Source: Raja brachyura
Taxonomy: Eukaryota
Length of the DNA: 64,000 nt
Reading direction: 5' to 3'
NCBI GenBank assembly: GCA_963514005.1
Contig: OY740821.1
Location: 14,384,001-14,448,000 of the forward strand
Below, piece by piece: positions 13,702-60,810 of this stretch. How positions within the stretch are numbered: position 1 is the stretch's first letter; the number at the start of each line of letters is the position of its first letter. The notes beneath the pieces are model-generated. The model did no database searches. It was not told where the DNA came from and saw nothing but the letters and a program-made list of their open reading frames with translations. The position numbers and the translations under genes are program-made.

Positions 13702-13869
<168 letters not shown>

Positions 13870-14798: not shown

Positions 14799-15983
<1,185 letters not shown>

Positions 15984-25419: not shown

Positions 25420-25491
25420 TCATCTCATGCTGAGCTGTGCAAATCCAATGAGTTTGGTTTCGTCTGGGCTGTAACCCTCACAGCCAGAGAC
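25420..25491 (-). CDS. Kinase last coding exon (VSGCEGYSPDETKLIGFAQLSMR*)
   Basis: 72 nt including TGA. Ends in the KLIGFAQLS signature of OSR1/SPAK. Confidence 0.94.
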   Translation of the reverse strand, partial: VSGCEGYSPDETKLIGFAQLSMR

Positions 25492-26068
25492 CTGCGAGGA
25501 GAACGAGGGGCGAAGAGTGAGCTTCCGGCTGACATTCCCTTCCACCCGTCACTGAGCAGTCAATGTGCACAACTAGATAGCAAGTGTGGAGAGAGGGGGG
25601 GTGGTTTGGCTACAATGGTCCCGAGTGTAGAGTTAGAATGGCGAATCCATCAAATCCATAAACTCCATAAAACCGAGAGCAACCTTGGGATTTCCACAGG
25701 TACATCCTTGAATGCGGAAATCTCAAGGTTCCTGTCACTGACTCGGCTCCGCACTCCACAGTTTGGCCTGAGTCTGAAGAAATTAGTGGAATTTAGTCCT
25801 GCAGTTAAATACTCTGGCAAGGTTGGGCTTTGATGCCGAGATCTAAGTGAGTTTTTAATGTCACTCTGAACTGTAATTAGTGGTTAACATACACTGACTG
25901 CTCTTACATTTTGTCTGTTGGTTGTAATTTCCTTAGATAAACATTTCAAAATATAATCTTTACAAATTTAAATTCTTTCATATGTCCAAAATGTATTTTC
26001 ATCCCAAGGCATTTGCCTCGACCTTTGCGCTTTGGCTTGCTGCTTGTGAGAACTCTTTCACGTGCTTA

Positions 26069-26355
26069 TGCACCTGTCCCACTTGGGAAACCTGAACGGA
26101 AACCTCTGGAGACTTTGCGCCCCACCCAAGGTTTCCGTACGGTTCCTGGAGGTTTTTGTCCTCCGGCAACCACCTTCAACTAGCATCGCAACCGGCTTCG
26201 ACTAAAAAAAATTACCGATTTTTAAAATGGAAACCACTTTCGACCATTAGGGAGACTGACAAAAACTGGCACCCAAGGGAACCGCACGGAAACCTTGGGT
26301 GGGGCGCAAAGTCTCCAGAGGTTTCCGTTCAGGTTTCCTAAGTGGGACAGGGGCA
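26069..26355. mobile_element. PIF/Harbinger-type (Tourist-like) MITE with long TIRs
   Basis: About 80-bp terminal inverted repeats beginning TGC(A/C)CCTGTCCCACTT, with TTA on both flanks (26066-26068 and 26356-26358). Confidence 0.8.
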
Positions 26356-27917
26356 TTAGTTGCCCGGCCAGCCTGACGACACCATGATTGTCGCGTGCCC
26401 GGCCATCCTCTTGTAGAGGTGGCTGGCTGCAGCAGAGGCTGATTCAAGGGGAGAGTCCGTGCCCGAGAGACCAGGGCAGCCTGCTTTGAACTCTGCCGTG
26501 AGTTGATGCCGCTTGCTGCTTAGTACAAAGTCGGGATTGCAGTTTCTTTAAAGAACCAGGTCACAATTCTAAGGCGGGGTGGATGTGGCTGGGTCACTGT
26601 GAAGAACTGAACTTAGTGTTTACATCATTCATACCAGGGGCTTTCCAACAAGGTTGCTTCTCTGGCTCTGCAATGTGATCCACAATGATCACACACTTTC
26701 CCGAGAGAAAAGCCATTCAAACCACCACCGTTCAGGATCGTTTTTAATCTTGCTTTCAAGAATGGATATATTTTACAACTTTAAACACTTGAAGCTGAGC
26801 ACATTTTGCCCCCATGATTCTGGATAGAATTCTGTCACGCATTGAAAGTTTGGTAGTTAAAATTGGCAAGAGGTGAACGAGCCTGTGAGACGTGTGGGAG
26901 AGGGGTCAGGCACTGTGATATATCCCAATATAACCATGTGTCTGAGTCTGTCACATCCAGATCCCACTCTGCTCCTTTCCACTGATGCCAACTACCGCAT
27001 GGCCTCAGACACTGTGAAGCTGTGCTGCCTTGAACTTTAAGATGGTTCTGAGGCTACCCAGTCATGCCAATGTTGACCCTTCCAAGTAGTCACGAGCTCC
27101 TCATTCCTTGAGTCTGGGCTGAACCCAAAACCCATTGCATTAATAATAAAAAATACTCGGTGCTCAGGGTATGGGTTGGTTCCTCCAACCCAGCATCGAG
27201 AATTTGTTTCAAGGAGACCTGATGTACAGTCGTGCTAGGCTTTCTATCAATGCACAGGCCAGTAAGACAATAATACAGCCAGCCAAGCAACATCCTGAGT
27301 GTAGGACATAATACCACCAGCCACCAAAAGATGGAGCAGGAGGAATTTAAGAGGTGATCGATTGAAAGGGAATTCTGAAGGTAGCAAGAGGGGAAGGATT
27401 TGGCGAGTGGGTTCTAGAGGAAAGAGATGAAATGCAAATCAGTAGTTGGCGAGGAGAGGGCAGGAAGGTAGAGCGGTGTTGGTATAAAGTCAGACGAGTG
27501 TGACAAACCGGAGCTGAACAAAGTTGTGGACGTGAGAGACCGGACCAATGTCCGTACCTCTCTCGCTAATCCTGGAATAGCTACGGACATCTGGGTACAA
27601 AATTGTTTTTGATAACTGGGCCACAGTCAGAGGCCGTTTGGGAAGCATCCCCTAGAATCTGCTGTTCCGGCCAGCGTTCTGTGAAAGAATCCAATCAGCT
27701 CCTTTGGGAACTATAAAGTGAACCATGCCTGGGTCCATGTACTTGGCCACTCAATATTACAGCGCGATTCATTCTCCAGTTTTAAAAACATCTGTCTGGC
27801 AAAAGTTGGGTAAAGCAACAGCTGTTGGCAATCCACGAGATTCTGCAAAACTGGTTGAAGAAACACTTTAAAATCTTTCAGAAGTTCCGAGATAGAGGTT
27901 TGTTTTGGTCTCCTTAC

Positions 27918-27982
27918 CAGTCTAAATGTGAGTGTCCTGTTCGAATGAGGGTCATCGATTAGTCTCTGCAGGTTGTTAGCCA
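27918..27982 (-). CDS. Kinase CCT exon (VANNLQRLIDDPHSNRTLTFRL)
   Basis: 65 nt, similar to OSR1 VAANLQKIVEEPQSNRSVTFKL. Confidence 0.93.
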
Positions 27983-28941
27983 CTAAAGAAACAACAGAAA
28001 GCAACGTTAGCAGGGATATCGTGTAAGTAGGAATTCAATCGCTGTGTTTGGGGACGTATGACAATAAAATACTCTTGAGCTAATGAATGGCTTGGAGTGG
28101 TCTAATGCCCTCTGTGCAGCGTATTCAGAAGCAGCAGGGAAGGGAAACTTAATCGTTCGATGCTGCTTGATTTGCATATTTTTTGCATATTTACGCATGC
28201 AGGCGGCGCCACTTCCAAAGTCCGGTCCGTCCACACGTTGTGTTACTGGACTGAACCCCCAATGTCCCGTAAAGGGGACTGCGAGCCCTCGGGCTCCAGT
28301 GATGTCTCGGCTCTCTGTCGTCAGGCAAGATCATCAGCAGGTTGACCTGCCTGTGATGGATATTTACACTCGCAACTCTGCAACACTTTGCTTGTGGGAG
28401 GTGAAAAGGCCATCGAGCACTGCACAGCTATTCTGAGCAAAGTTGTGCCACATTTTCTGACCCACTCTCACCTGGGGCACACCCAGGCCAACCGTTTGTT
28501 TCAATTGCTCAGTCACTGGGTGTGGGTGCTGTTGACAGACAGTGTTTACTCCCCATCCCTCATTAACTGGCTCGCTGCACCTTTTCAATTAGGAGTTGAT
28601 CACACTGCTCTGGGTCTGGAGTCACACATGGGTCAGATCATGAAGGTCTAAAGGACACAGGTAAAAACCCTCGGGTTATCTGGAGGCTGGTGGCTTCATT
28701 ATCGTTATTGAATGCCAATTTTCTTTACAAATAACAATTTACATTTCCCATCTGCTGTGGTGGGATCTGAACTCACTGCTCAGAAAATTATTAATTCAAT
28801 CCTCTGAATTACATGCCCAACTGGTCAAAGGGAGAATCTTCTTGCTCGCTAACATGGAGGTGCCAACACCAACATTATCCTGACTGTGGCTCTCGCCTAT
28901 ACATTCAGCTGTAAGTTGAATATGTTGCAATTGGGACTTAC

Positions 28942-29010
28942 CAACCAGCATGTCAAACTCGTCCACTAAACCTGCAGAGACAAGTTCCTGAGAAACGCCG
29001 ATGGCAGAGT
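28942..29010 (-). CDS. Kinase CCT exon (DSAIGVSQELVSAGLVDEFDMLV)
   Basis: 69 nt with the GVSQEL.SAGLVD signature. Confidence 0.94.
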
Positions 29011-29606
29011 CTGCAGGGACAGATGTTTGAAATGAGCTCCAGCATGAAACAGTGTGAAATAGTTTCTAGCACAAATTAGGACAGCAGCAGCCTGAAGCTC
29101 AAACTTGACAATCATAGTTCCGTGCAGCACAGGAACAGGCTCTTCAGCCCACCTTGTCCGCGCCAACCAAGTTGGCATTCTGCACTCGTGCCTTTTGCCT
29201 GGCCCCAATCCCTCTAAGTGTAAACCCTTCCTACCCGTATCTGTCCAAACGTCTGTTAAACGTCATAATTGTATGGCTTCTATCGCGTCCTCTGGCAGGT
29301 CCTTCCAGATATGGACTGCCCTCTGTGTGAACATTCAGTCTTTGTCCATTAGACATTAAGGTCAGAAATACCTTTGGTCCCTCTGCAGTTAATGCGAGCT
29401 GTTCTCAGAGTTGTCCACTGTTCCTAGAGAATAGTTTTTTTACTGTTCCCCGTCCCAGTTAGTCCTGCCCCATCACTAACCAAGACAACACGCGGCTGAC
29501 TTGGTGCCAGCGTAAGCAGACAGCGTGGTTCTAGAAATGAATGCTAACAAACATCAATTCTCCAGCATCTAGTTGCTAATTTAAAAAGGAACAAAGTGGG
29601 ACTTAC

Positions 29607-29659
29607 CCCTGCCTGGAGTGAACTCAAATCTGATGTCATTCAACTGCCTTTGTAAATTC
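29607..29659 (-). CDS. Kinase CCT exon (NLQRQLNDIRFEFTPGR)
   Basis: 53 nt with the LNDIRFEFTPGR signature. Confidence 0.95.
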
Positions 29660-29972
29660 CTGTGCAAACAGTTAATACAATATAAAATATTATATTGTTG
29701 AAAATCCTCCCCTTCTCCCAGTGCCCCTGTTAATGTCTCTCGCACATGGGAGAACATTCTTCCTCCCTGTACAAGATTCTCTCGGAGGATGACCTTGTCA
29801 ACCTCCTTCAACAGCAGAGATGCTCTCCCACCAACATGCAAGCCTCCGCAATGGTGCTGCAGGCATGGTGGCACCAAGTGACAGTTGCTCCATTGCAACA
29901 GCTCATTCCGGAGATGGCCATTGTGTGCAGGGAAGCTGCTAAGACATTGAGCAGGGGCTGGATGTTGCTTAC

Positions 29973-30040
29973 CTCAATCGTAGAACAAGGAGAATAGGTC
30001 CACCCTGGTTCATCAGATGTGATGAACTTCCCGACGGCCC
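29973..30040 (-). CDS. Kinase exon starting the CCT domain (GPSGSSSHLMNQGGPILLVLRLR)
   Basis: 68 nt. PI.LVLRLR matches the OSR1 CCT start. GTAAGC donor. Confidence 0.9.
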
Positions 30041-30389
30041 CTGGCAAAATCAAAACAGCAAATGTTAATTAGAACTGGTATTGATTTATCATTGTCAAGT
30101 GGACTGAGATCCACTTTTGGTCGAACTCCGAGCCAGAGAAGGGACTGACCAGCAGTGCTGCAGGGAGACTGGAGAAGCTGAGTTTGTTCAACTTGGAGCA
30201 GAGAATGCTAAAGAAGATTTGATGCTCAAAATTGAGGGATTTGGGTGGAGCAGACTGGGGAGAAACTACTGCCACTGACTGAATGACGATAACTGGTGCA
30301 GGCAAGATAATTATTTTTGTAATCTGGAGCACACTACCTCAAAGAGCCGTGGAAATAGATTCAATTAGAATTTTCAGATGGGAATTAGA

Positions 30390-30770
30390 TTCAAGAGAGT
30401 TTTTTGTCATGTGCCCCTGATAGGACAATGAAATTCTTGCTTTGCTTCAGCACAACAGAACATAGTAGGCATTGACTAAAAAACAGATCAGTGTGTCCAT
30501 ATACCATTATATAAATATATACACACATGAATAAATAAACTGATAAAGTGCAAATAACAGATAATGGGCTATTAATGTTCAGAGTTTTGTCCGAGCCAAG
30601 TTTAATAGCCTGATGGCTGTGGGGGAGTAGCTATTCCTGAACCTGGTTGTTGCAGTCTTCAGGCTCCTGTACCTTCTACCTGAAGGTAGCGGGGAGATGA
30701 GTGTGTGGCCAGGATGGTGTGGGTCCATGATGACACTGCCAGCCTTTCTGAGGCAGCGACTGCGATTGAC
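30390..30770 (-). mobile_element. L2-clade LINE 3' end
   Basis: AATAGCCTGATGGCTGTGGGG...CTATTCCTGAACCTGG, homologous in reverse to the C-terminal region at 63000-63130. Confidence 0.6.
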
Positions 30771-31414
30771 CTCCCTTCCATTGAGGGGATCTGAGCCGAT
30801 GGATCAAAAGTTGATCTATAGCTACTGACTCATCTCTCCTCCCCTGCTACTTTGTTTGGAAAACAAGCACCTGTGAACATCGACTTCCATCCCAGTTGTG
30901 ATGTTTCTGCACGCCGACAGTTCATCTCTCACACACAGGCCCTGGGGTGAGATAGTCCCTGTCACTGCTGAGCAGGAGCCTCAGCCAAGCATGGCATCCC
31001 ATGGAGCTAACCTCAGTAACGGCTTCAAGTAACTCTTGCTTTCCCTCTCTCTCCGTTCCTCCCCATCCTAGTTCTCGGACTAGTTTCACTGTCCTGACTA
31101 AATACTACCGATTGTTCGCCTTCCACACAGCCAACAATGAACCATTCTACATTTCTTGACCATAGTCTGCTTTGATCTGTCGTTTTCACACCTTGCCCTT
31201 CCATACCTCCAGTCTACCTCTCTCCTGACTCTCAGTATGAAGGGTCTCAAATCGAAACATCACCCATTCCCTTCTCTCCAGAGATGCTGCCTGTCCCACT
31301 GAGTTACTCCAGCATTTTGAATCTATCTTCAGTGATGTCAGCACGGACTGACTCAGTCTGCTGCCGACCCAGTGAGGTGCAGGCAAAAATGAGCGTTTTC
31401 ATAAGTATTTCTAC

Positions 31415-31456
31415 CTCAGAACTTTGTAAAATTGTGGCTGAGAGCAAATCCACTAC
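31415..31456 (-). CDS. Possible kinase linker exon (VVDLLSATILQSSE)
   Basis: 42 nt, phase 0-0, GACAG acceptor and GAG|GTAGAA donor. Positioned like the short linker exon of OSR1, but without strong similarity. Confidence 0.4.
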
Positions 31457-31539
31457 CTGTCATTTGACACCGTTCCTATAAAGTTTTTAAATAATGTTTT
31501 TAGCAGTTTATCCAGTTCTGTTCTTACAATTATAGCCAT

Positions 31540-31680
31540 CTCACTTGAGACTGGAATTTCCCCAGATACTTATAAAACCGCTGTGGTAAAGCCTCTGTTA
31601 AAGAAACCAAATTTAGACGGTGGACGACTGAGTAATTGCAGACCCCTTATCAAATCTACCCTCTATCAGCGAGATACTGG
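31540..31680 (+). mobile_element. L2/CR1-clade RT fragment
   Basis: Translates as YKTAVVKPLLKKPNLD....NCRP, a typical L2 RT N-terminal motif. Confidence 0.6.
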
Positions 31681-31684
31681 ACAA

Positions 31685-32033
31685 AGGGGGGATCTTATAA
31701 AAACGTACAAAATTCTTAAGGGGTTGGACAGGCTAGATGCAGGAAGATTGTTCCCGATGTTGGGGAGGTCCAGGACAAGGGGTCACAGTTTAAGGATAAG
31801 GGGGAAGTCTTTTAGGACCGAGATAAGAAAAACATTTTTCACACAGAGAGTGGTGAATCTCTGGAATTCACTGCCACAGAAGGTAGTTGAGGCCAGTTCA
31901 TTGGCTATATTTAAGATGGAGTTAGATGTGGCACTAGATACAGGATACTGTGTTGGATGATCAGCCATGTTCATATTGAATGGCGGTGCAGGCTCGAAGG
32001 GCCGAATGGCCTACTCCTGCACCTATTTTCTAT
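31685..32033 (+). mobile_element. Young CR1 LINE 3' end
   Basis: RGDLIKTYKILKGLDRLDAGRLFPMLG...VVNLWNSLPQK. Confidence 0.9.
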
Positions 32034-32153
32034 GTGAAGCTAATTCAGATTGGATTAAACAGGAGCTGTCAAGAAAGACTATATCTGATTTTCCTTCACT
32101 GGAAAGGGGAGGTTGTTTATCGCCAGCTGCAAGAAAGAGGCAGATGCACTCAC

Positions 32154-32276
32154 CGCTTTCTGATAGGCGGCAGGTTTTGGTTCATCGTATCCGTCACCCG
32201 ATTCATCGTCACTCCATTCCCAGCCTCCGTCCTCGGTTTTGTACAAGTGACCGCTCGACCCCTGCATGCGCATGGT
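32154..32276 (-). CDS. Kinase S-motif/WEW exon ([41 protein letters not shown])
   Basis: 123 nt with the [17 protein letters not shown] signature and a GTGAGT donor. Confidence 0.93.
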
Positions 32277-32624
32277 CTGCAGGCAATCACACAGTGCAGC
32301 TGCAAGGTTAGTCGGCAGCATTTTGATTTCCTGCCAAGACGACACTTCTTGCTGGCAAGTTTTCTCCTGCCTTCGTCTGAAGGCACCGATGGCCCGAGGG
32401 ACCCCGTTTTGTAAGCCCAGACACTGCCTATCATCCACAGCATCAGGAGCTCAACCCTGCCCCACTGTCTGTTTGCTATGGAGCGAAGGAAATAGGCAAT
32501 GTTTCGGCACGAAACGTTGTCTATTCCCTTCGCTCCATAGATGCTGCTGCACCCGCTGAGTTTCTCCAGCACTTTTGTCTACCTTCGATTTTCCAACATC
32601 TGCAGTTCCTTCTTAAACAATTCA

Positions 32625-33365
32625 TAGATCGGGGCATTGAATACGAGTCAGGAAGTCATGACCGAGCTTTGGTTCGGCTGCATTTGGAGTTTTGCGTGCA
32701 GTTCCTGTCACCCAGTTACAGGAAAGATGTGGAGCCTTTGGAGAGGGTGCAGAGAAGGTTTACCAGAATGATGCCTGGATTGTGAGGTGTTAGCTACAGG
32801 GAGAGGTTAGACAGACTTAGATTGTTTTCTCTGGAACGCCAGAGGTTGAGGGGAGTCCTGATATAAGTATATAAAATGATGAGAGGCGTAGGTAGGGTCA
32901 GCAGGCAGACTTTTCTTTTCTCTCAGGATGGAAAAAACCTCAAATATAGAGAGCATAACTCTCTAGCCCTTCAGTCTGAAGAAGGGTCTTGACCCGAAAC
33001 GTCACCCATTCCTTCTCTCCAGAGATGCTGCCTGTCCCACTGAGTTACTCCAGCATTTTATGTCTACCTTCGATTCAGACCAGCATCTGCAGTTCTTTCC
33101 TACACACAGAGAGCATAGCTTTAAGGTGAGAGGAGCAAAGTTTAAAGGAGATGTGCGGGCAAATTTTTTTTTGACACAAAGGATGGCGAGTGCCTGGAAT
33201 GCACTGCCGTGGTGGTCAGATACAATCGTGGCGTTTAGGAAACTTATGGACATGCAGGGGATGAAGGGGTGTAGATTACGTGCAGGCAATGAGTGGTCAG
33301 AGATGATCTTGGCCTCATGTTCAACACATTGTGGGCTGCAGGGCCTGTTCCTGTACTGTACCATT
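32625..33365 (+). mobile_element. CR1 LINE 3' fragment interrupted by a solo pLTR insert
   Basis: Decayed RT (..LERVQRRFTRMMPGL..., HSFKVRGAKFKGDVRANFF.TQRMASAWNALP). Confidence 0.8.
32961..33107 (+). mobile_element. Solo Penelope pLTR-derived element with an intact minimal hammerhead motif
   Basis: CTGAAGA AGGGTCTTGACCC GAAACGTC at 32976-33003, flanked by AGAGAGCATA(A/G)CT direct repeats. Confidence 0.75.
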
Positions 33366-34942
33366 CTTTGTTCTAGCCATCTGCCGTTGGACAGGAAAAG
33401 CATCGCTACTAAAGGGCAAGTTACTGAGGTGGGAAGTGGAGCTAGGAATACAAGTCATTTGAACTCTGTACGCTTGCCAGGATTCTCACCCCTCATCTTA
33501 CATCCACTGCCCTACTGCAAGTAACTAGTGAACATCTTGTGATTCAACAACATGCTACCTTTACCTCTGCTGTGAGGAGCTGAATGGGTTGGTCTACAAT
33601 GATAATTCTATCCTGATGAAGGTGGGGCAGCAGATCTGGAAACGATAGATGCTGGCACAGACTTAAGCTCGTTTTTAACTGATACCAAAGTGTGATCCTG
33701 TGAGAAACACGCGATACATCCACGAGGAATGAACAAAGTGCATTTCTACACCGTCGTTACATCAGTGAGAAACACGCTGTCCTTTATAAGTGTCGTTACT
33801 ATTGCTACGTAGACAATTGCAGCCAGAAATTTGCGCAAAGCATGATTATGATCTACAAACAGCAATGCAATGTGTGGTCAGGGATGGATGTTAGGCAAGA
33901 GAACAGCCCCATTTCTGTTACTGAATAATGCTGGCTGATATATTTTTTTAAACATCCACCTGGACAGGGTGATGGAGACAGGATTAATTTTGTATTCGAA
34001 TGATGGCATCTTTGACCTTGCCAGCCATTTGATGTGGAGCAGAGTGTGCTAAATGGTGCTTGCTTTGAGTCTGGGAAATCTGTTGCGAAAACTTGCACTG
34101 CCTCTGCTGGGTAATATTCTCTGACGCTTTTGGGAAATACAGACCTTTTTGCTAGGCCCGGGCTCACTCGCAGACTTTGGTATCGTGCCAGTAGCTTGCA
34201 CTGTGTTGTCAGCCTGCAAGAAGATAGAAGAAGTCTATTTGCGCCAGTGTATAGAGTGGGAAAGGCACGGATCGATGTGTCCCTCTGAGCAGTCCAGTGC
34301 CGCACCTAGGTCCCTCTTTACATGCCGTGTCTCTTTGCGCCTTGGCCCAAACTGCATGGATTTTTAGGCCTGATTTAAAATATTGCCTTTTCTCGCCTCA
34401 TCTCTGAGCACCATAAGCTTGAAATGAGACTAGTTGTCCAAGTGAAGCTGAAAAGCAAACGGTTTGCGTGCCATTGCCTGATGTAGACACTTTCCCAAGG
34501 GATTTTCCTGTGTTGTAGGTGACGAGGAACAAAGTAAGGCTTGAAGCACGATGAACAGATACATAATTAGATCCCAACAGCATGCCAGTGAACTGCTACG
34601 ACTTAGACTCCTTCGACTCCTTTATAATGTTCACTCCTTTATAAAGCATCAAGCAGTTCGTTACTCTTGCACTCCAATCAACAGCAGCTTGCTTTGGTTC
34701 GCCGACACCATACACAACCTTTGCAAACATCTGCCTTCTAAGTTTCCATTACCTCTTTAGTACTTTGTGTACCACTTTGCTCATCAGTGTGTTGCGTAAA
34801 CTACTGTATCCCCGGTCCACTGGCAGTGCTCAATTCAGGCAGGTTAACCAAACTTGAAGGCAGAGGTTTTTAGACACCAGAGTGCAAATGCAAATCTTCC
34901 CCCACCCCGAGCTTCCCAGAATGACCGACAAGCAGCCCTTAC

Positions 34943-35008
34943 CTTTGGGTCCCGTTGCCCTCTGCATTGTGGTTGTCCCAACAACTTCTCCATCAAATAA
35001 TCTTTATT
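34943..35008 (-). CDS. Kinase exon 10 (NKDYLMEKLLGQPQCRGQRDPK)
   Basis: 66 nt, phase 0-0. NK.YL.EKLL resembles the OSR1/SPAK segment after the kinase domain. Confidence 0.88.
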
Positions 35009-35835
35009 CTGAAACAAGGCAATGGGTTTTGCATAAATCCACAGCTATGGAGTCTTGGTTCAATTGAAAAAGCAACATGTATCCAGTGGGAGCAGGAAGA
35101 GGAAAGCAATTCTTTGCCAGGTTTGCACATTTGTATCACACAGTTCGACTCAGCCTCTACCCGGCTTGTCCTCATGCATCATCAGCCCCCCAGCGGAAGT
35201 GGTGCATGCCCAGCTAAAGAACGATCAGCTCTGCCACCCCACTGCCACTCTCCCTCTTCCGGTTTTCCACACTGCTCCCACAGATCAACTGGAAAATCAG
35301 CTCCAAAGGATCAGATAAAGCCCACTACAGTTTGGGATTGGGGCAAACACATGTATAGCAGGTTAATGGTTGGAAGGTGCTGATGTAAAGGCAGGTGCAT
35401 GAAAGTTCACAGGGGCTTTCCAAAAGGGATTGGATCATTACATTGAATAGTAAAATGACAGGACTTTGTGTACTGGCTGTGTTGCTGTGGTAGAGAGGAG
35501 AGCCAGGACTGGCACCATGGGCCAAATGGCCACCTCCTGCACTGTTACCATTGTATGATTGGAATCACCCAGGCTTCGGTGGTTACAAGCCAAGTGATGG
35601 AAAAGGGGGTTAATGTGGACGGGTCGGTATGGACACGGTGGCCAAATGGCCTGCTTGCGAGCTGTGTGTCTCTACAATTGTATAAGTGAAGAGTGTTTTG
35701 TTGAGAAGTGCAATGAGACCAGTAGTCTGGAATTCCATCTCGCGTGTAAATGGCTGGCATGGGCGTCACTGTTGCAACAGACTTTCGCCGCGGTTCATGC
35801 CACCGCTGGGTTATTCACTTTCCTCTCTCATTTAC

Positions 35836-35884
35836 CTTTGATTTCTGAAAGAATTTGTGCTTCAGCAGCTCTGCTGCAGTGGGC
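35836..35884 (-). CDS. Kinase exon 9 (PTAAELLKHKFFQKSK)
   Basis: 49 nt, TTTTACAG acceptor and GTAAAT donor. Confidence 0.92.
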
Positions 35885-36519
35885 CTGTAAAATAGAGTTT
35901 ACAGAGTGAGTTGGGCACGTTGAAAGCGGGGAGGAGGGGTCGAGGCATTGCGACGAACCGGCAGCCTGGCCGGGAAACCGAGGCCACATCAGGTAAACGT
36001 CAGACATCAGCAGCACACTTCCTCGTTTCTTTACCGCCTCGCGAGCCTCTACCCCGGTTTCTCCTGGTGGAGGGAGTTGGCTGCTGTCCCTTTGTGCTCC
36101 CTAGTCACACATGAGCAATGGGTGACATTGAAATGCAAACTGGACACCCAGTGTCCAAGCCCGACCTGTGGCATCAGTTAAACGCTGGCAGGACGGGACG
36201 CTTCTGTTCATGTGTAGCAGACGCTCCACATTCACCCACCCACCCACCCCCAGCCACAAGGTTTAGTAGCTGGCACATTTCCACCTTGTTATCCATACTT
36301 CACACACACACACACACAGCACTTGGTGCATCAGGCTGTTTCTTGCCGCAAGTTATTGGGGATTTGCGATCACTGTTCCCACCTCCTCGCCTGTTCCCAT
36401 GCTTCCTCATGACATGCAACCCCCAGCTTTAACTGGATGGCTCGTTATGGTTCATTCGTAGGCAAGAGCAGGAACAGGCACTCATCCTATCCTTCAATGT
36501 CAATATCCTTCAATGGGAT

Positions 36520-36795
36520 ACTGAGATACAGCAGGGAAACAGGCCCTTCAGCCCAGCGAGTCCGTGCCAACCAGCAATCACCTGAAAATACTAGTTCTAC
36601 GCTATCCCCCTTTCTCATCCACTTCCAACACACCAGGGGCAATTTGTAGAGGGCCAATTAACCTACTACAAATCCTCATGTCTTTGGGATATGGGAGGAA
36701 ACCCACGTGATCACAGGGAGAACTTGTGAACTCCACACAGACAGCACCTGAGGTTAGAATCGAACCTGGCACTGCGAGACAGCAGCTCTACCAGC
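36520..36795 (-). mobile_element. tRNA-derived SINE copy
   Basis: Similar along its length to the copy at 46456-46761. Confidence 0.75.
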
Positions 36796-36978
36796 TTGTG
36801 ATCACCTTTCTCTCTGCAGCTGGATTTCAGCCTTCGTCTTGAAGGCGGCACTAATATGTGTTGCCCCGAGTACGCGATCGGTCCGGGTCATGGCTTCAGC
36901 TGATCCCGAGCCCACAGCCCTGTCTCCTGGCCTACTTTCCTATTGCATTCTGTCTACGACCGACGTCTGTGAACACAC

Positions 36979-37112
36979 CTCTTTGTAGGGTCCTTCTGCA
37001 GGCACAGGGCAATCAGTTTACGGAAGGACTTGCCATACTTCTTAACCATCTCCTTGTCCTCTACACCCGTCTCGAGAATAGGGGGCTCGTTCTGGAGAGT
37101 CACCATCAGAAC
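36979..37112 (-). CDS. Kinase exon 8 ([45 protein letters not shown])
   Basis: 134 nt, AG/GT boundaries, matches OSR1/SPAK. Confidence 0.95.
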
Positions 37113-37837
37113 CTGGAGCCGGATTAAAGGAGAGACGAGTTGTAATGTGCACTGGGAGTGCTCTCCTACTGTAACCAAAACAGCACTGTACTCAAAACAT
37201 TCAAGCCGCCACCAACTGCTGTTTTATCATTCAACTCGGTTTCCATTTCTTGCAACCTTTTTTCCTTTAATCCGGTCCTAGCAACTAACAAAAAAAAAAA
37301 ATCAGCTCCATTCTGACATTGAAATAAACACAGCTTAGTTCAAATTCCATTGCAAATCAGTCACAGGCTTGGATCATGAAGTCAAATTGTAATCAGTTTG
37401 CATAAAATCGGAATTCTGAAATAGATTACTGGCTGATTGGACATTTGAGTTTTCGTTTTAAACAGGCAACTTAACACATTTTGTTTCCAGACAGTTGCCA
37501 ATTAAGTATTTAGGTGCGATGCTAAGGGTGCTATGAAGGTTAGATCTTGATTTACAATTCCCAGAAAACCCACAAACCTAGATTAGATTTATTTTGCAAG
37601 GAAAAATGTAACTCATCTGGTTCTGTGTCACTCCCGGTGATACAGGATTCTCTCCAGATAGGCAAAGTGCTGGAGTAACTCAGCGGGTCAGGCGGCATCT
37701 TCCCTCCAGAGATGCCACCTGACCCGCTGAGTTACTCCAGCACTTTGTGTCTCTTTTCGGTGTAAACCAGCGTCAGCAGTTCCTTCCGACACATTCTCTC
37801 CAGTTAACTTCTGAACATCCATCAAATGTGCAAGCTA

Positions 37838-37975
<138 letters not shown>

Positions 37976-38133
37976 TCAGGAGTTGGTCTGAGGCAACTGG
38001 AAACCATCTGAAAGGGGACTTGTGCAAAAGTAGTGTGCTCACCACAATGCTGACATCTGCTGGAAACTCAAGGAACTGCAGCTGCAGTTGCGGACTCGTG
38101 GAGTAGAAACAAGAACACAAAGTGCTGGAGTAT

Positions 38134-38339
38134 TGCCCCTGTCCCACTTAGGAAACCTGAACGGAAACCTCTGGAGACTTTGCGCCCCACCCAAGGTTTC
38201 CGAGCGGTGCCCGGAGGTTTTTGTCCATCTCCCTAATGGTCGAAACTGACAAAAACCTCCGGGAACCGCACGGAAACCTTGGGTGGGGCACAAAGTCTCC
38301 AGAGGTTTCCGTTCAGGTTTCCTAAGTGGGACAGGGGCA
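38134..38339. mobile_element. Second, internally deleted copy of the same MITE, inserted in a Penelope pLTR
   Basis: Almost entirely palindromic, with the same TIRs and TAT/TAA flanks. Confidence 0.8.
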
Positions 38340-38342
38340 TAA

Positions 38343-38790
38343 ATCTGCATCTCCGGGGAATATGGATAGGTGATGTTTCGGGGCAGAACCCTTTTTCAGA
38401 TGTATTGTGGTGGGGTGAGGGGGGGGTGGGGGGAGAAAGCTGAAAGAAATGAGAGACAGACAAAGCCTGGCAAGTGATAGGTGGATATAGGTGAGGGTTT
38501 TTATTGGATAGGTGAAAGATTGAACAAAGTCGGATATGAAGGGACAGAAGGTGTGAGTTAAGGACAGAAGAGTTGTCAATTGTGAAACCAGAGGAAGGAA
38601 TGTAGGTGGGAGGGGGAGGAGAGAAATGGGTGCAAATCCAGGTAGGGCGCAGGGAAGAGAAGGGGGGGGGGGGGGGGTAGCTAAAATTGGAGAATTCAAT
38701 GTTCATAATATTGGGTTGTAAGCTACCTATGTGGAATATGAGGTGCGGTTCCTCCAGTGTGTGAGGCCTCGCTCTGGCAATGTTCAGGGG
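38343..38790 (-). mobile_element. Penelope-like 3' end (GIY-YIG C-terminus, 3' UTR, pLTR)
   Basis: LEEPHLIFHIGSLQPNIMNIEFSNF, then a pyrimidine-rich UTR, then the CTGAAAAAGGGTTCTGCCCCGAAACATC pLTR motif. Confidence 0.8.
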
Positions 38791-40722
38791 GTCAAGCAGC
38801 ATCTGATCAGGAAATGGACAGGCGATGTTTCAGATTGGGACCCTTCTTCAGACTAAAGAAGATTCCCTCAGTGTGAAGGCAGAGCCCTGGCTCGAAATGT
38901 TGTTTGTCCATTTCCCCCCCACAGATGCTGTCAGTCAGACCCACCGAGTCTCTCCAGTATTTCAGTTTTGTTTTTTGCTCAAGATTTCAGCATCTGCAGT
39001 CACTTGTGTCTCCCTTGTATACCACAGAACCTTTTGATGCTTCAAAATGCTATCCTTAATGTACATGTTGGGCTGTGACTAGCAACCAATGATTTAGGGT
39101 TTATCTAATGGCTGACAATCTCGTCAAGCCATCTCCAAATTAGCAGATGGGTAACAAATACAAGTGAAACTAGGATTGTGATACGAGAGGCCAGACTCCC
39201 AGAGGATGTGAGCTGCATCTGGCTCACAGGCTACAGATGCAGCTCACAGCTTCCTCCTGGAAATAATCAGCTACTATTTTAGTGCAAGTTCATTTGCTGA
39301 GGTCAATTGCAATTTATTTTTTAAAGGGAAATGGGAAAACCCTGGAAAGCTGGAATAAAGCCAAAATGCTGGAGATACGGCAGGTCAGGCAAGATGTGCG
39401 AAGAGATTCAGCTTAAGGCCAAAAGCATTCACATAAAAGTCTTTGCTGGATAATTAACAGAGGGCTGATTTTAGAGATTGAGTTTGCATTCCATGTTGAC
39501 GTTACATATAAATGCAGCATTTTCTAATCTATGCTTAACTGAGACAAAACAAATGGTACCTGCACCACCACATTTTGTGATAGGAGATATTTGTCCAAGA
39601 ATAAAATGTAATTTGATTTCATCAAATCCAGTGCCGACAGCTTCCAATGAAATCAGATCAAGATACAGCCCCACCCAGAGTACAATTCGACACACCCATT
39701 CCATATTTTAATAGTGCACCCACTTCATTTTGTAACAATCCTTCCTCATGATTTGGCTGCATCCATCCCATCCTTTGCACTTGATACACCACAAGCCTCG
39801 TCACATGAATAACGATCTCACAGTGAAGCACTGAGAGCTGATGAAATATCAATTCTGCGGTTGGCAAATGGGATTAGACAGCAAGGCGAAGGCTTAAATA
39901 TGAGAGTGTGCATTGAAGCGGTTTTGGACATTAGGATATCGTTTTATGTTCTGCAATTCTGCATTCCCAAGGCTCATTTTTTATTCACAGTACCTGGAAG
40001 GTACCAGGGGAGTGGTGGAAGCAGATACCATAGTGGCTTTTAAGAGGCTTTGAATATGCAGGGACTGGAGGGACATGGTCCATGTGCAGGCACAAGGGAT
40101 TAGTTTAATTTGACATCAATGATCTACATTGGTCCACTGAAGTAACCATGGCACAGGGATGCAAGCAGAAGCCTCCACGTGGCGCATCCCGGGCAATGCT
40201 GACGACAGGAACTGTACCGCAGTGACTGACTGAAGTGGCCAATTCTGCAACCACCGACCGTCAACCGTCACTGAGCGACCGGAAGGACGTGATATAGAAG
40301 ATGGCCGTTCACGAGGAAGAAGACGGTGGCACAACCCCGTTCTAAGGCATGAGGAAGAGTAATACCACGGTACATTGGGCACTTCCTGGAGCAATGTTTT
40401 GGTGGCCACGGGGCTGAGGTTTGCCAATTTATGTCATCCTAATCAGATTGTCACAACTTCCAGCAGACTTTGATTGGGTCCGTTTTGGAGGTGAAATGAG
40501 CGCTCAAACTCCCTAATACCCGTCGGCCCCAGGAAAGTTAGAGATGCCATCGCTCAACAAGGGTGATGTGAATCAGGTTCCCTAATTCACTCTGCAAGCA
40601 TCTGGGTTGAGATGGTAAACCACAACTGACCAAGCCATATTAGGTTAAAGTCTGGGTTGCGAAACAAATTATGCAAACCAGGCCCGACTTTAGCAAAAGG
40701 TTAACATGAAACCTTGATTTAC

Positions 40723-40832
40723 CTGTTCCATCACTTCAGGGGCCATCCAGCACGGAGTTCCCACAAAGGTTTTACGCACTTTATTTCTGGTCATATCCCC
40801 ACCACCAGCCAGAAAGGCACTAACGCCAAAAT
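40723..40832 (-). CDS. Kinase exon 6 ([37 protein letters not shown])
   Basis: 110 nt. Contains DFG, the activation loop with the WNK-target Thr (KTFVGT) and APE. Confidence 0.97.
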
Positions 40833-42167
40833 CTAGCAAAGGAAGAAGCCAACTGTTACACAGTTCTCTGGGAAAGAAAAACCTTGACATCAGTAACATT
40901 GCCGTGGGGCACTGAAGCACAATGTGGGCTATCAGCCGCCAGTGTAGCTTCAGGCAATGAATGCACGGGTGAGTCAGCTGGGGAAGGTATACAGACTCGC
41001 AGCCACTCGATTCCTCCTCCACATCCATACCTAGTGATGAAAGGGTTGGTATTAAAGTCTGCCTTTGTTGCAGTGACATTACGTCAGGGGACACAAAAAT
41101 ATAGATTAAACATTATGGAGTACAAGCTACGCTCATCCAGAACTCTGCCTCCTCAGTGTCATTCATCCATCATTCCTGTGGTTACCGGCACTGGCTCCCA
41201 GTCCAGCAACATCTCAGATTTAAAGATCATGTCTTGCAGTTCAAATCTCATGACTGCTTGATCCACACCCTCTTCTAGCCCTGCAATGCTCCGGGTCTGT
41301 GTTCCTGGAAAGCCGACCCCCCCATCACTCCCCACTTCCTTGAACATACATACTGCCTTCAGTTCCCTGCGTTCCAGAATTTCCTCCTTAAATCGCCCTG
41401 CCTCTTTTACCCCCCCCCCTCCTTTAAGAGGCCCTGTAAAACCTGTCTTTGACAGATAATTTGGTCTCCTGTATCATTGTTTTTTTGTCCAATAACATTC
41501 CTTCGAAATGCCTAGAGATATGTTTGCTGTGTTAAAGCTACAAATCCAAGTGTTGCTTCATAAACTCAGTCTCCAAAGGACACTTTTGTAACAACATTCT
41601 CTGCCTTCCTTTCCCTGAAAGTACTGGCTATTGCTTTAATAGAATTCAGTGGAGACTGGGTAGTGAACAAGTACTAGCACTCCAACAAGTAAACATGTTT
41701 TATACAATGCCGTAAATAGGCAACAGCAAATTGGCAGCTCATTTGTGCTTCTTTGGAAAAAAACGTGGGCAAAGATATAACATCAGCTATCACTTACTTG
41801 ACATTATTGTGCACTCAAAACAGTCCCCACTACTCAGATAGCAAATGCACTGATTGCTTTAACCTTTCAGTTTATTACTGAGATTAGATTATAGAGGAAC
41901 TGTGAGTTCAGCTCGAGGGTAGAGCCAGCAATAGAATCAATTCTCACAAAGCCGAGACCACTGCAGACTTTGGGGTCTGCGTCGCCATTACTCACTTTAC
42001 CTCCCGGTCACAATTGGAGATGCTGGGATGTTAAAAATAATCACGTTTGTTTTCTGTTCTAGTAATAATCTACACTGGCCTCATGCATTTAATTTGTAAG
42101 CAAAGTACATTAAGGACATTATTTGGAGTTAATTTATAATAGTGACATTAGCATCTGCTCAACCTAC

Positions 42168-42223
42168 CTGCAATTTGTATAGATCCATCGTCTCCAAATA
42201 GAATATTACCGGCTTTAACGTCC
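42168..42223 (-). CDS. Kinase exon 5 (DVKAGNILFGDDGSIQIA)
   Basis: 56 nt, AG/GT boundaries, catalytic loop. Confidence 0.95.
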
Positions 42224-42635
42224 CTGAAAATAATACAGATATTAAAAAACAATCAGGATTGACTGATGAGTTGTCAGGCCTTGTGTCCCTTTGCTTGTCC
42301 ACTGCCTCAGTCACCCTTCCCTTGTTGGTTGTGGCTGATGAACCGCTCTATTTAAGAGGTTGTGCTGATCAACCTTTAAACAAAGGAGGACACAGCCAAA
42401 GAACTGACTAGTTTGCGGTCGAATTGGACGTGCCGTGGTCCCCGGGCCAGTGGGTTGTTGAGACTCCGAGCCAGAAAATCTACGCTGGCACTCAGTGTAG
42501 CATCCTGCCTTCAGATGAGATATTAAACCAAGGCCCCATGTGCTCTCCCATCGCAAATCGATAATATGCCTGGGTTCCTGACCAAGATTATAGCCTGACC
42601 CACTGAGTTCCTCCAGCCATTTGCTTTCTGCTCAT

Positions 42636-42726
42636 GGTCACAGGGAGGACGAGCAAACTCCACACAGACAGCACCGGAGGTTGGGATTGAATCGGAGTAT
42701 CTGGAGCTGTGAGACTGCACCGCCAT
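42636..42726 (-). mobile_element. SINE head fragment
   Basis: GGTCACAGGGAG...CAAACTCCACACAGACAGCACC motif shared with the other copies. Confidence 0.6.
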
Positions 42727-43210: not shown

Positions 43211-43352
43211 CTGTGTATCTGTCCATTCCTATGCAGATAATCCAAGCCTTCCAGCACCTCTTTGAGAACGGTTGCGATCACTGGTTCATCCAGCACGCCA
43301 GTCCTGTGTTCATTTCTGCTCACTGTCTTCCTGATTATATCCAGCATAGAGC
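43211..43352 (-). CDS. Kinase exon 4 ([48 protein letters not shown])
   Basis: 142 nt, AG/GT boundaries, start of the HRD motif. Confidence 0.96.
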
Positions 43353-43554
43353 CTGAAAGGGAAGCAAAGGACTGTCCACCTTGCATCCAAGCAGAAGGCT
43401 TGCACTCTCTTTTTACTATTACACCATGCACCCCCATCTCTCACCTTCTTTGTTCCTGCTCTTCCCCAATACTGATGAGATAAAAGACTAGCGTAGTTGT
43501 TGATATTGTAGATGGGAGTCTTAAGCTGCAGCGTGATATTTTTAACGTGGGGAT

Positions 43555-44200
43555 TGGCAGATTCTTGATTAGTACGGGTGTCGGGGGTTATGAGGAGAAG
43601 GCAGGAGAATGGGGTTGAGAGGGAAAGATAGATAAGCCACGATTGAATGGCAGAGTAGACTCGATGGGCCGAATGGTCTAATTCTGCTCCTACAACTTAT
43701 GAATATGTCAATGTGTTGGTGTAATGGGCAGAGAGATGGCAGGTGGAGTTTGATCCTGATAAATGAGAGCTGAGGGAGCATTTTGGGAGTTGTATGGAGG
43801 CCATGAATGGTTGGGTCCCAGGGGGTATTGCAGAACAGAGCGACTTTTGTGTACACGTCCATAGATCTTTGAAGGAGACAGCACAGCTAGGTAAGGTGGT
43901 TAAGAAGACATGTGGAATGATGGCCTTCTTTAGTTGGGGCATTGAATAAAAGAGCAGAGAGGTTATTCTCCAACTGTATAAAACAATAGTTAAACATCAG
44001 CTGGAGTGTTCACTGCACTTGAAGAAAGAGGGTGCAGAGGAGATTCACTAGGATGTTGCCTGCGATGGTGTTTCAGTTATGAGGAGAGACTGGAAAGATT
44101 GAGTCTGTTTTTCCTGAGGAAGTCAAGAGGAGAGATGATGGCGGTATATAAGATTGAGGGGTATAGACAGAGCAGACTGCAGGAAACCTCTCCCCACAGG
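43555..44200 (+). mobile_element. Two CR1 fragments (a 3' tail, then a decayed RT segment)
   Basis: GATGGGCCGAATGGTCTAATTCTGCTCCT tail, then decayed RT (GGCAGGTGGAGTTTGATCCTGATAAATG...YEERLERLSLF). Confidence 0.65.
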
Positions 44201-45995: not shown

Positions 45996-46761
<766 letters not shown>

Positions 46762-46806
46762 CCATTTCAGGTTGACACCCTTCAGTCTGAAGAAGGGTCC
46801 CGACCC

Positions 46807-48169: not shown

Positions 48170-48282
48170 CAGCAGCTCATCCATGCTCGTATTGCATTTC
48201 TCCAGGTTTATTCTCTTTATCGCCACCCGCTCATTTTTGGGTTTGCAGAGAGCCGCCTGTACCACGGCAGTCGCCCCGCAGC
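48170..48282 (-). CDS. Kinase exon 2 ([38 protein letters not shown])
   Basis: 113 nt, AG/GT boundaries. Encodes the Gly loop and the VAIK catalytic lysine. Confidence 0.96.
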
Positions 48283-57809: not shown

Positions 57810-58065
57810 CATAGAGACAAAATGCTGGAGTGATTCTGCGGGTCAGGCAGCATCTCTGGAGAAAATGGATTGGTGCCATTTCGGGTCGGGAACCTTCTTC
57901 AGGTCTGAAGAAGGGTCCAGACCCAAAATGTCACCTATTCATTTTGGTCTGAAGATGGGTCCGGATCAGAAACGTCACCTATCCATTTTCTCCAGAGATG
58001 CTGCCTGATCCGCTGAGTTACTCCAGTCCTTTTGCGTAAACCAGCATCAAGAGTTTGTTGTTATT
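57810..58065. mobile_element. Inverted plus tandem pLTR element with three hammerhead-like cores
   Basis: One - strand core at about 57870-57902 and two + strand cores at 57905 and 57949. Flanked by a 13-bp direct repeat ACAGATTTGGAAG. Confidence 0.75.
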
Positions 58066-60737
58066 ACAGATTTGGAAGATCCTGGCATTAGCCTGTGTTG
58101 AGCTCACTGATCGCATTTGTAATGATGGTAATGGCCAACCTTACAATTAACACTCATGTCTCTAAGATAAGGAAAGCCACGATTCCATTCCCAGTCCAGG
58201 ATCAGATCTGGCTGAAAAGCTCATTTTGTGTCTGACTCATTGGAAAGTACTGGACTTGGCTGTGATGCCCTCCAGTGTACAATAGCTATCTGTACCTGCA
58301 TTCCCAATCAACCAGTGGTGAAAGACAGTTATAAACATTAAACTCACCCATGTAAATTGGAAGTACCAGGACCGATACCTGTCCCGTAACAGGTAAACTG
58401 ATCTCAGCCTGGGCAGCAAATGGGCACGCAAATTTGTATCAGCATCCACAGACTAGTGAGAGGGCAACCCACACTCCACTCCCACCTCTGGCTGATAGTC
58501 AGAGCCTCTTCAATATTGGAGGAGGAGAAATGTGGGTTTGGTTAAAACTTGGTTGTAATTTTCCCTCTCCACAGCCTTCTTAAACTCCACAACTGACATT
58601 ATATTAAAGAATACCTCAGTGCAAAGAAACCCACCCTCAGCCTGGGTCAGCATCTTTCAGAGACAAGTAGTGAAAGGAACTGAAAATTGAATGTATTGAT
58701 TTTGATCCGAGGCCCAATGTGAGGCTCGATCCAGCTTTGTGCAAAATCATGCTGACACGATATAGGATGAAGTCACTGGTGGTGAGTGGCTAGTGTCTGG
58801 CAGACTTAATTGGCTTCTGAAGAAGTCTGGAGAAACCTGCTCCGAAACACTAACCCGTCAGCTGTGTGAAACATTTCACACAGAAGATAGATCCATTAAA
58901 CTGTCCAAGCTTCCATAATCCACTTTTTTTACTCAAGTTTTATGTTAGAGACAGGTTTACAATTGTGCCACGATAGACATATTCACCTGTTGAATTATGC
59001 CACCGACCAAATCACTGCATTTTCTTACAGTTTTAACCGTACAGGTGAGGTGGTACTACACCTGATTTTATTTTTGTACAGCTCTCTCAAACACGCCAAG
59101 AGATTCATTCTGCTGGGATCCAGTAGCGCTATCATATCTGATATATAAAACAAGTCTGAAGAACAATATCGGGTCAGTGTTCGGAAATGAGGAGGGTCCT
59201 AACCAGATGCAATATTGTTACCATCCAAAGTAAAACTGTATAGTGATCGCAGGTCCATGTCACTTTGCAACTATTCCACCTGAGGACACCCAATACAATA
59301 CAAAACAGCGTTTGAAACTGTGATTGTTTAGTCTGCAGAGCTGGTAATGAAATAAACCTTACCTCCAAATGAAAATGTTGTAAATCATAAACATTTGATG
59401 CCAACAATTACATAGAAAATGACAAATGCAATAAAACAAGGTCTGAACACTAAGAAAGTGTGTTGGTACCAAGTTAAGTTAACTCTTTTATGAGGGAAAA
59501 AGAGACACGGGGTTAGATTTTAGAAACAAGGACCTCAGATGCTAGTTTACGCAAAAGAACACAGTCCTGGAGTAACTCAGCAGGCCAGGCAGCACCTCTA
59601 TGCCCCAAGGGGTTAGATTATTTGTTCTTCCATGGTGGCAATTTAAATCCCTGTCACATTTTGTATCATGCATTCCTGATCTCAAATTAAAGAATCAACA
59701 ATCTTATAGTACAGAATGAGGCCATTCAGTCCATCAAATCTGTGCTGGCTTGCCATTGGAGTGGTCTATTGCCATCCACTTGCTCTTGCCTCATTTACTT
59801 TTTTTTAATATATTTTTGTGCATAAAGTTTCAATTGCTTTTCAAACTTCTCTGCGACAGTAGCTACATGTGGCAAACTGTTCCACGTCCTGACAACTCGA
59901 TGTGTGCTAAGAAATTATCGCCTGAAGAAGAAAGTTAGATAACTCTGAGGCCGCGGCCCCTTCTTTACCGATTCACCAACGAGTACAAACAATATCTTCC
60001 TTTTCACTTTCCCAGAAGCTTTTAACGTCGTTCTGCCTCATGCAAATTTGCCGTGAGACCACCTGACCCCACCCCCAAAACCCTGATGACTTACTTTGTG
60101 ATTTATATAAATACTTACGTTTCGTATGGCGGCGGGCATCAGCTGCCATTTCACTATGTATATATAAATATATATATATTAGAAAACCTTCAAGTATAAA
60201 AGATTATTGCAGGGCATCCCGTTTGACATGATGTAGCAGCGTCGCGGCTTTGCAAACATGTCAAGAGGGGGCTGGCAGACAGATTGTCATCAGAACCACT
60301 TTCAATATGTTTAACTTTCATTCATTACTGCAGAACCCGGATCAACCAGTCTGAGAGGAAAATGAAAACAGCAGGGCGAAACATACTCTGTTGCATATTC
60401 CCGACCCCGAAACATGCATTTATAAATCAGAACATTTGCAGCATGTAAATCAGAAAGAAAGCCGATTTGGTTTTTGTTGTTGTTTTGACATGTCATGAAA
60501 AACTGCGCCCGTTTTTTTCCAAAATAAAATAAGACGCAGTCCACCTGCACCCAGTTAATAGTGCAGGCTGGGCACATGCAAAGATTGAAATCGCTCAGAA
60601 TTAATAATGCCGCACATACTAGACTGAAATTGAACTACAAAAAACAATCAAGGGAAGGATTATTTCCTATGCCATTGCGATCGTTACATTTATTTAGATC
60701 CGTCACCTTTACTTAAAATGATTAGGAAGAGACTGAC

Positions 60738-60810
60738 CGATGATTTCCTGAAGCTCATAGGCATCTCTTGAATTTGGCCACTGGGACCCGGCGAGCAGCT
60801 CTTCCGCCAT
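60738..60810 (-). CDS. OSR1/SPAK-family kinase exon 1 (MAEELLAGSQWPNSRDAYELQEIIG)
   Basis: ATG in a good context (ATCATGG) and GTCAGT donor. Matches OSR1 'W..NRDDYELQEVIG'. Confidence 0.9.

Follow-up and report, generated by a model that had tools for sequence, protein, structure and literature searches.

The window analysed here, 64,000 nucleotides of the skate Raja brachyura (C42:14,384,001-14,448,000, on a 15.6-Mb contig), carries a real, intact and spliced gene for a kinase of the SPAK/OSR1 family. The gene is probably the whole-genome-duplication twin of STK39, the gene for SPAK, and was kept in cartilaginous fishes, where STK39 itself was likely lost; bony vertebrates would have made the opposite choice (reciprocal loss). 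We infer both the duplication and a loss across all chondrichthyans from the position of the gene between paralogs of the neighbours of STK39, an empty STK39 slot elsewhere in the same genome, a family count of two and a clade composed of cartilaginous fishes.

The gene runs on the minus strand from an ATG at 60810 to a TGA at 25420. Homologues were fetched with exon 3 and aligned to the window, and splice sites were taken directly from the sequence. There are 17 exons, every intron is GT-AG with consistent phases, and the exon join is open, giving a protein of 490 amino acids, or 467 without exon 11. A sequence-only reading of the window had joined 16 exons in frame into 467 residues; all 16 are present and correspond to the form skipping exon 11, the 69-nt in-frame cassette exon (34213-34145) that it missed.

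A kinase in a paralogous slot, and an empty one

The genes around the kinase are arranged LIMA1(+)-kinase(-)-CERS5/6-type(+)-COX14(-). Kinase and LIM gene are convergent on opposite strands, as previously read, and their stop codons are 9,436 bases apart. The LIM exon has EPLIN/LIMA1 as its best PDB match (E 5.5e-21; LIMD2, 2.1e-14), and Xin repeats (35 matches genome-wide) occur only at C7:56.84 Mb and C4:122.24 Mb, none on C42; the gene is therefore not XIRP2, and its identification as LIMA1 stands. CERS5 had been expected on the plus strand past position 64000, and a CERS5/6-type gene does lie there, head to head with the kinase (14,483 bases between the two ATGs), with COX14 behind it (14,526,908, minus strand; the one COX14 match above the cut-off). 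A SMARCD-type SWIB exon is also on C42. Without the kinase, this is the order at human 12q13. In that order GPD1 would follow COX14; the GPD1 family has three matches (C7:85,336,603, C2:34,088,119 and C7:36,355,245), none on C42, and one of them lies 1.4 Mb from CERS6 on C7. The block may hold a further case of reciprocal retention, running the other way round.

The corresponding block on C7 reads B3GALT1-type(-)-CERS5/6-type(-)-SPC25(+). Exon 1 of its CERS5/6-type gene is at 86,895,646 on the minus strand, between the B3GALT1-type gene (86.988 Mb) and SPC25 (86.65 Mb, where two of three SPC25 matches fall). The B3GALT1-type gene is a single exon of 326 residues, for which the ESM Atlas returned no paralog-level name; we take it to be B3GALT1 from that layout and from the human protein. 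This is the order at human 2q24, where STK39 lies between B3GALT1 and CERS6. Single-copy anchors tie C42 to 12q13 and C7 to 2q24, and the flanks of the kinase are paralogous to those of STK39 in the same order and orientation. The ceramide synthase exons pair between C42 and C7, and the tails of LIMA1 and XIRP2 are 44% identical.

The slot in which STK39 would be expected (C7:86,895,646-86,987,949) spans 92,303 bases with no N. Searches of 270 kb around it by tblastn with ten family proteins and with a family hidden Markov model (HMM) stayed at noise level, the HMM giving nothing better than E 9; the same HMM mapped the kinase on C42 and the OXSR1 gene on C4 exon by exon. No exon-length match was found in the slot by blastn and nhmmer with 31 exon DNAs. 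The kinase itself, being on C42, does not fill the B3GALT1-CERS6 position. A 25-nt match in the slot was rejected as a remnant of STK39, since it lies in a repeated frame resembling a long interspersed nuclear element (LINE). A gapped match of 47 nt to exon 3 of OXSR1 (C7:86,875,935-86,875,889; blastn E 1.45e-5, nhmmer E 0.11) is on the wrong strand in CERS6 intron 1 and is probably due to chance, less probably a displaced remnant. A 200-N gap lies in that intron too, outside the slot.

A rearrangement break stands next to the empty slot. XIRP2 (Xin repeats and LIM tail) is found at C7:56.82-56.84 Mb, 30 Mb from B3GALT1 (C7:86.99 Mb), its neighbour in human. The XIRP2-STK39-CERS6 block previously invoked also includes B3GALT1 in human, and XIRP2 lies apart from it here.

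Two family kinases, not three

When the genome was searched with the T-loop exon and all 16 candidates were scored, two loci matched, at 100% and 97%. Full-length queries led to the same pair, with 87 of 305 candidates evaluated for the sawfish ortholog P0035 and 86 of 358 for coelacanth STK39. One is the gene on C42; the other is OXSR1 at C4:122.32-122.40 Mb, ~75 kb from XIRP1, whose exon 4 retrieves chondrichthyan OSR1 at 94-98%. The separate OXSR1 locus that a third kinase would imply is thus there, beside XIRP1; a separate STK39 locus was found neither in the slot nor in the genome-wide searches. Hence the number of family kinases in the skate is two, the same as in mammals, rather than the three proposed from sequence, and there is no expansion of the family. 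A genome search with PF12202 was uninformative: its three matches lie in neither kinase, because the CCT domain is split over small exons. C34 carries one LIM paralog, one PF12202 match and one exon of SMARCD type (12.85, 15.13 and 22.97 Mb), which suggests a HoxB-type paralogon; no family kinase was found there.

Protein databases give a similar picture. The lists used were the best 120 of 1778, 1938 and 1691 matches plus cluster members, crowded by bony STK39, and 366 proteins of at least 380 residues among these listed matches were classed by best score to three references. All 51 proteins assigned to the clade of this kinase are chondrichthyan. The 64 chondrichthyan-labelled proteins listed divide into 51 of this clade, 13 OXSR1 and no STK39, with frog and teleost STK39 present among the same matches, which is suggestive of an absence of STK39 beyond this skate genome. 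The loss of this gene, proposed earlier for mammals, appears to span bony vertebrates generally.

Phylogeny and the cassette insert

Seventy-five rows were aligned, and 47 were used for the tree after removal of 12 unclassified rows, two distant outgroups and 14 by thinning (IQ-TREE, LG+C20+F+G4, 462 columns). Three clades were recovered: this kinase (100/100), STK39 (99/95) and OXSR1 (100/97). The kinase groups weakly with STK39 (84/65), and at 0.98 in a FastTree of all 75 rows. It is not nested in the OXSR1 clade, whose role is filled by the XIRP1-linked gene on C4, and forms a chondrichthyan clade of its own, in line with the sequence-only reading. The stem of this clade is long (0.40 versus 0.08 for STK39, 0.10 for OXSR1 and 0.093 for chondrichthyan OXSR1), which fits a split older than the divergence of sharks and bony fishes; rate could also explain it. 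In an approximately unbiased (AU) test (LG+F+G4, 22 rows) an origin from chondrichthyan OXSR1 was rejected (p = 0.00014).

Exon 11 encodes an insert between kinase domain and S-motif. Among the matches listed, an insert of 21-25 residues at this position occurs in 32 of 49 proteins of this clade, 11 of 216 STK39 and none of 89 OXSR1. The insert is an independent character linking the kinase to STK39.

Compared with bony STK39/SPAK (PDB 5D9H, 7O86), the kinase domain is 85-87% and the CCT domain 65-67% identical, the T-loop peptide and a His in the S-motif are alike, and both genes stand head to head with a CERS5/6 gene. They differ in neighbours (CERS5/LIMA1/COX14 rather than CERS6/B3GALT1), in the linker (44-46% identical), in the long stem and in occurrence, the kinase having been found only in cartilaginous fishes. 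The skate protein also lacks the Pro/Ala-rich N-terminus of STK39 (coelacanth STK39 is likewise short there). With OXSR1/OSR1 (PDB 2VWI, 2V3S) it shares the domain plan, the CCT pocket, 83-84% of the kinase domain and the exon sizes, which are equal in 13 of 14 comparable exons; OXSR1, in contrast, is without the cassette insert, has a longer linker and occupies its own locus in this genome.

Origin of the kinase

We propose that an ancestral block of LIM gene, kinase and ceramide synthase was doubled in the second (jawed-vertebrate) duplication; the HoxD chromosome would have received XIRP2..STK39-CERS6 and the HoxC chromosome LIMA1-kinase-CERS5. The kinase beside CERS5 would then have been lost in bony vertebrates and the one beside CERS6 in cartilaginous fishes, leaving each lineage with OXSR1 and one non-orthologous 'SPAK'. 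The earlier suggestion of an ohnolog mirroring XIRP2-STK39 is in this way upheld as regards slot and flanks (LIMA1, CERS5) and set aside as regards a third copy. Synteny and the common cassette exon carry the case; the tree cannot prove it. The legend of Extended Data Fig. 8 in PMC10972751 groups HoxC and HoxD as C/D, which fits sisterhood with STK39, and PMC10115646 describes beta segments as having more gene loss and faster evolution and lists LER40 (=GGA33) as beta. Cryptic ohnologs that survive in cartilaginous fishes and are missing from bony vertebrates have been described (wnt6b and cspg5, PMC10115646), and the duplication copy Bmp16 reportedly had the same fate (PMC6395752). Unlike these, the sister copy of the kinase appears to have been lost in the other direction too, and copy number hides the paralogy.

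Several points weigh against this origin. The choice between CERS5 and CERS6 rests on neighbours, and human CERS6 scores with exon 1 of the C7 gene at 100.9 bits and of the C42 gene at 91.6 bits. No sampled genome or lineage has both a CERS5-linked and a CERS6-linked kinase. The absence of STK39 was checked by DNA in one skate, and in other species by the best-120 lists and cluster members. The AU test does not distinguish the three rootings (p = 0.70, 0.41 and 0.23), and a quick mixture tree left the three-clade fork open. A chondrichthyan clade sister to bony STK39 is a shape that a true ortholog also gives; paralog and ortholog cannot be separated by this tree, because the set holds no chondrichthyan STK39. 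Lamprey, hagfish and amphioxus were not among the sequences retrieved, so that Ciona is the nearest named outgroup. In SI Table 3 of PMC10115646 the partner of the GGA33-type chromosome is the LER2 segment, not LER7, which would not predict sisterhood with STK39. On the functional side, freshwater stingray NKCC1 is described as lacking the SPAK/OSR1 docking site (PMC3857534), and the pathway is therefore not uniform in elasmobranchs.

Much of this would also suit a true STK39 ortholog that left its place beside CERS6 for the one beside CERS5 (or made the opposite move in bony fishes), for example by early homeologous exchange, and then evolved faster. No other STK39-like gene was found in the genome, which is half of what the sequence-only reading named as its refutation. 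The kinase has bony STK39 as its sister group and the cassette exon in common with it, the slot yielded nothing left over from a lost gene, and the chimaera protein P0123 is listed by NCBI as SPAK, with no '-like' attached. Yet it is sister to bony STK39, not nested within it, and the move would have had to reach the exact paralogous position and orientation, head to head with a ceramide synthase gene and convergent with a LIM gene; the stem is also about four times that of chondrichthyan OXSR1 (0.40 versus 0.093), and independent losses of duplicates are common (68 differentially retained ohnolog cases in PMC10115646). We consider such a move unlikely. Reciprocal loss is favoured because a chance landing between paralogous CERS and LIM genes in the right orientation seems far less likely than two losses.

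A little less likely again is that the kinase coexists as a third ohnolog with STK39 and OXSR1 in cartilaginous fishes, STK39 being missing only in skates or from this assembly. One genome examined as DNA and lists crowded by bony STK39 leave room for that, against which stand the contiguous, empty slot in this skate and the 0 of 64 chondrichthyan-labelled proteins among matches that did include frog and teleost STK39. Very improbable, and largely refuted, is an origin by duplication of OXSR1 within chondrichthyans, or by a small-scale duplication that had nothing to do with genome doubling. The matching exon sizes, a similar identity to both relatives and a sisterhood with all OXSR1 that is not rejected (p = 0.41) agree with it; grouping with chondrichthyan OXSR1 alone is rejected, as reported above, the insert is absent from the 89 OXSR1, and the flanks are paralogs of those of STK39.

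Motifs and predicted function

As in other SPAK/OSR1 (GCK-VI) kinases, the kinase domain is of Ste20 type (best PDB match SPAK, E 5e-192) with intact catalytic residues: Lys47 (VAIK), Glu64, Asp147 (HRD) and Asp165 (DFG, split by intron 5). T-loop Thr186 is equivalent to the WNK site (OSR1 Thr185, SPAK Thr233), and the peptide around it does not differ from the human phospho-epitope given in PMC4512625, where the T-loop and S-motif phosphosites and the pocket Leu of the CCT domain are also defined. Ser349 of the S-motif is kept (OSR1 Ser325, SPAK Ser373), the preceding residues being altered in skates, and WEW is at residues 360-362. The CCT domain, compared through P0258, whose CCT is identical to that of the window, matches the SPAK and OSR1 CCT structures at E 8e-37 and 1e-36 with the RFxV-pocket Leu aligned. 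Every motif listed in the sequence-only reading, from VAIK to a full CCT domain, is thus found in the assembled protein; all are conventional for the family, and there is no new biochemistry.

By analogy with SPAK and OSR1, the CCT pocket (Leu437) is predicted to bind RFxV/I motifs of WNKs and transporters. WNK would phosphorylate Thr186 and Ser349 and so activate the kinase, which in turn would phosphorylate cation-chloride cotransporters, stimulating NKCC/NCC and inhibiting KCC.

Two changes are seen in the window and in both other skate rows. Cys replaces Ser in the glycine-rich loop (window 48280-48278; 13 other rows keep Ser), and the RRV-type residues before the S-motif are lost (exon 12, 32276-32154). 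They could alter redox sensitivity or S-motif recognition.

Probable linkage to the X chromosome

HoxC, Wnt1, Wnt10b, Gli1 and Stat6 are genes of human 12q13. These and others are carried by elasmobranch X chromosomes, which are homologous and show ~1.5-fold female-biased expression outside the pseudoautosomal region (PMC12318234). Reported sizes are 16.4-28.8 Mb for X and 45.0-73.0 Mb for X1/X2, and little skate chr40 was inferred to be an X (10.1101/2025.02.26.637739). The scaffolds bearing the kinase in sawfish (16.41 Mb), white shark (28.81 Mb) and lesser devil ray (73.08 Mb) match the ends of these ranges, and those of five more species lie within them (23.6, 28.3, 20.1, 16.4 and 69.7 Mb); horn shark (37.8 Mb), thorny skate (8.7 Mb) and little skate (8.1 Mb) are outside. 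Scaffold size thus fits the X in 8 of 11 species with an assigned X, and by this measure the kinase is likely X-linked in elasmobranchs. No match for six gene terms was found in supplementary material of PMC12318234 and PMC11406177. The locus is ~1.15 Mb from the end of the C42 contig, so that a pseudoautosomal location is possible; it would remove any dosage effect. If the kinase is X-linked and lies outside that region, the sexes would be expected to differ in a core osmoregulatory kinase.

Relation to earlier work and significance

The gene is already annotated automatically as a member of a known family, and its evolutionary status appears undescribed. RefSeq entries in ~20 cartilaginous fishes, the chimaera included, call it 'SPAK-like' or 'OSR1-like', much as the sequence-only reading had guessed; XP_032871686, XP_051865384 and XP_042200308 are this gene under automated names (99.6% for the skate model). 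Literature on STK39/OXSR1, sharks, ohnologs and rectal gland yielded no paper on a kinase paralog or on chondrichthyan STK39 loss, with subscription journals thinly covered, and no mention of either was found in passages of PMC7606576, 10.1101/2024.02.13.579840, PMC5346417, PMC11979771 and PMC3857534. The list of 68 retained ohnologs in PMC10115646 may include the kinase.

If reciprocal loss is correct, the kinase to which the name SPAK would be given in the shark rectal gland and mammalian SPAK are not orthologous. The exchange is masked by gene number, which is two in each lineage, and at least one database record, that of the chimaera, bears the plain name SPAK. The pair, some 450 million years old, would provide a natural test of the interchangeability of duplicate kinases and a clean case of reciprocal ohnolog loss. 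NKCC phosphorylation was reportedly described in the shark rectal gland, the classic tissue for it, by Lytle and Forbush in 1992. A much bolder proposal, which we regard as rather doubtful, is that SPAK proper is gone from every cartilaginous fish and that the WNK pathway there works through OSR1 and a fast-evolving twin from the HoxC paralogon; in sharks and rays the twin would sit on an ancient, incompletely compensated X, and females would have a higher dose of a kinase switching on NKCC in rectal gland, kidney and gill.

Gene model, splicing and repeats

Coordinates within the window are given in Table 1.

Table 1. Features of the kinase gene and of the adjoining LIM gene (window positions)
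Feature	Position	Strand	Evidence or remark
SPAK/OSR1-family kinase gene, ATG to stop, 17 exons	25420..60810	-	homologue alignment and splice sites
Exon 1, 73 nt, ATG at 60810	60738..60810	-	residues 1-25 of P0035 match 100%
Exon 2: P-loop (Cys26 in skates), VAIK Lys47	48170..48282	-	
Exon 3: alphaC Glu64	46082..46190	-	
Exon 4	43211..43352	-	covered by contigs of X1, X2, X6
Exon 5: catalytic Asp147	42168..42223	-	
Exon 6: DFG, T-loop Thr186 (codon 40770-40768; = OSR1 Thr185)	40723..40832	-	
Exon 7	37856..37957	-	
Exon 8	36979..37112	-	also in spliced contig evidence
Exon 9	35836..35884	-	
Exon 10	34943..35008	-	
Exon 11: cassette, 69 nt, 23 residues	34145..34213	-	insert of like length at the same place in STK39, not in OXSR1
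Exon 12: S-motif Ser349, WEW motif	32154..32276	-	also in spliced contig evidence
Exon 13: linker, start of CCT	29973..30040	-	
Exon 14: CCT	29607..29659	-	
Exon 15: CCT, Leu437 (= OSR1 Leu473)	28942..29010	-	
Exon 16: CCT	27918..27982	-	
Exon 17: CCT end and stop	25420..25491	-	also in spliced contig evidence
LIMA1 (EPLIN) LIM-domain exon, first half	13735..13870	+	
LIMA1 terminal coding exon: LIM second half, tail, stop 15983	14960..15983	+	

The 490-residue form differs from the RefSeq protein P0258 (Amblyraja radiata) at two of 490 positions. Contigs from four runs of three studies (runs presumed to be RNA, one flagged as probably DNA) were placed on 24001-43900, and small exons inside spliced contigs were deduced from lengths. 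In X1, X2 and X6, a single contig each links exon 17 with exon 12 across 256 letters (255 for exons 13-16 together), and the X2 contig further links exon 8 with exon 12 across 114 letters (115 for exons 9 and 10 together). Related skates thus splice this gene, and exon 11 is skipped in the X2 contig, since 114 letters fit exons 9 and 10 only.

The RefSeq skate isoforms P0007 and P0031 read through the exon 16 donor (window 27917-27771) and lose the last CCT exon. In RefSeq skate models an upstream ATG in the same frame (window 60975-60811) adds 55 residues that run over a simple repeat; the start of most ray models is at 60810. Two frames, 31442-31960 and 32967-33524, have no Pfam match and resemble LINE fragments. 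Very high-copy repeats lie in the introns at window 30600-33300, 37300-37900 and 43300-43900, where contig depth reaches up to 4e5.

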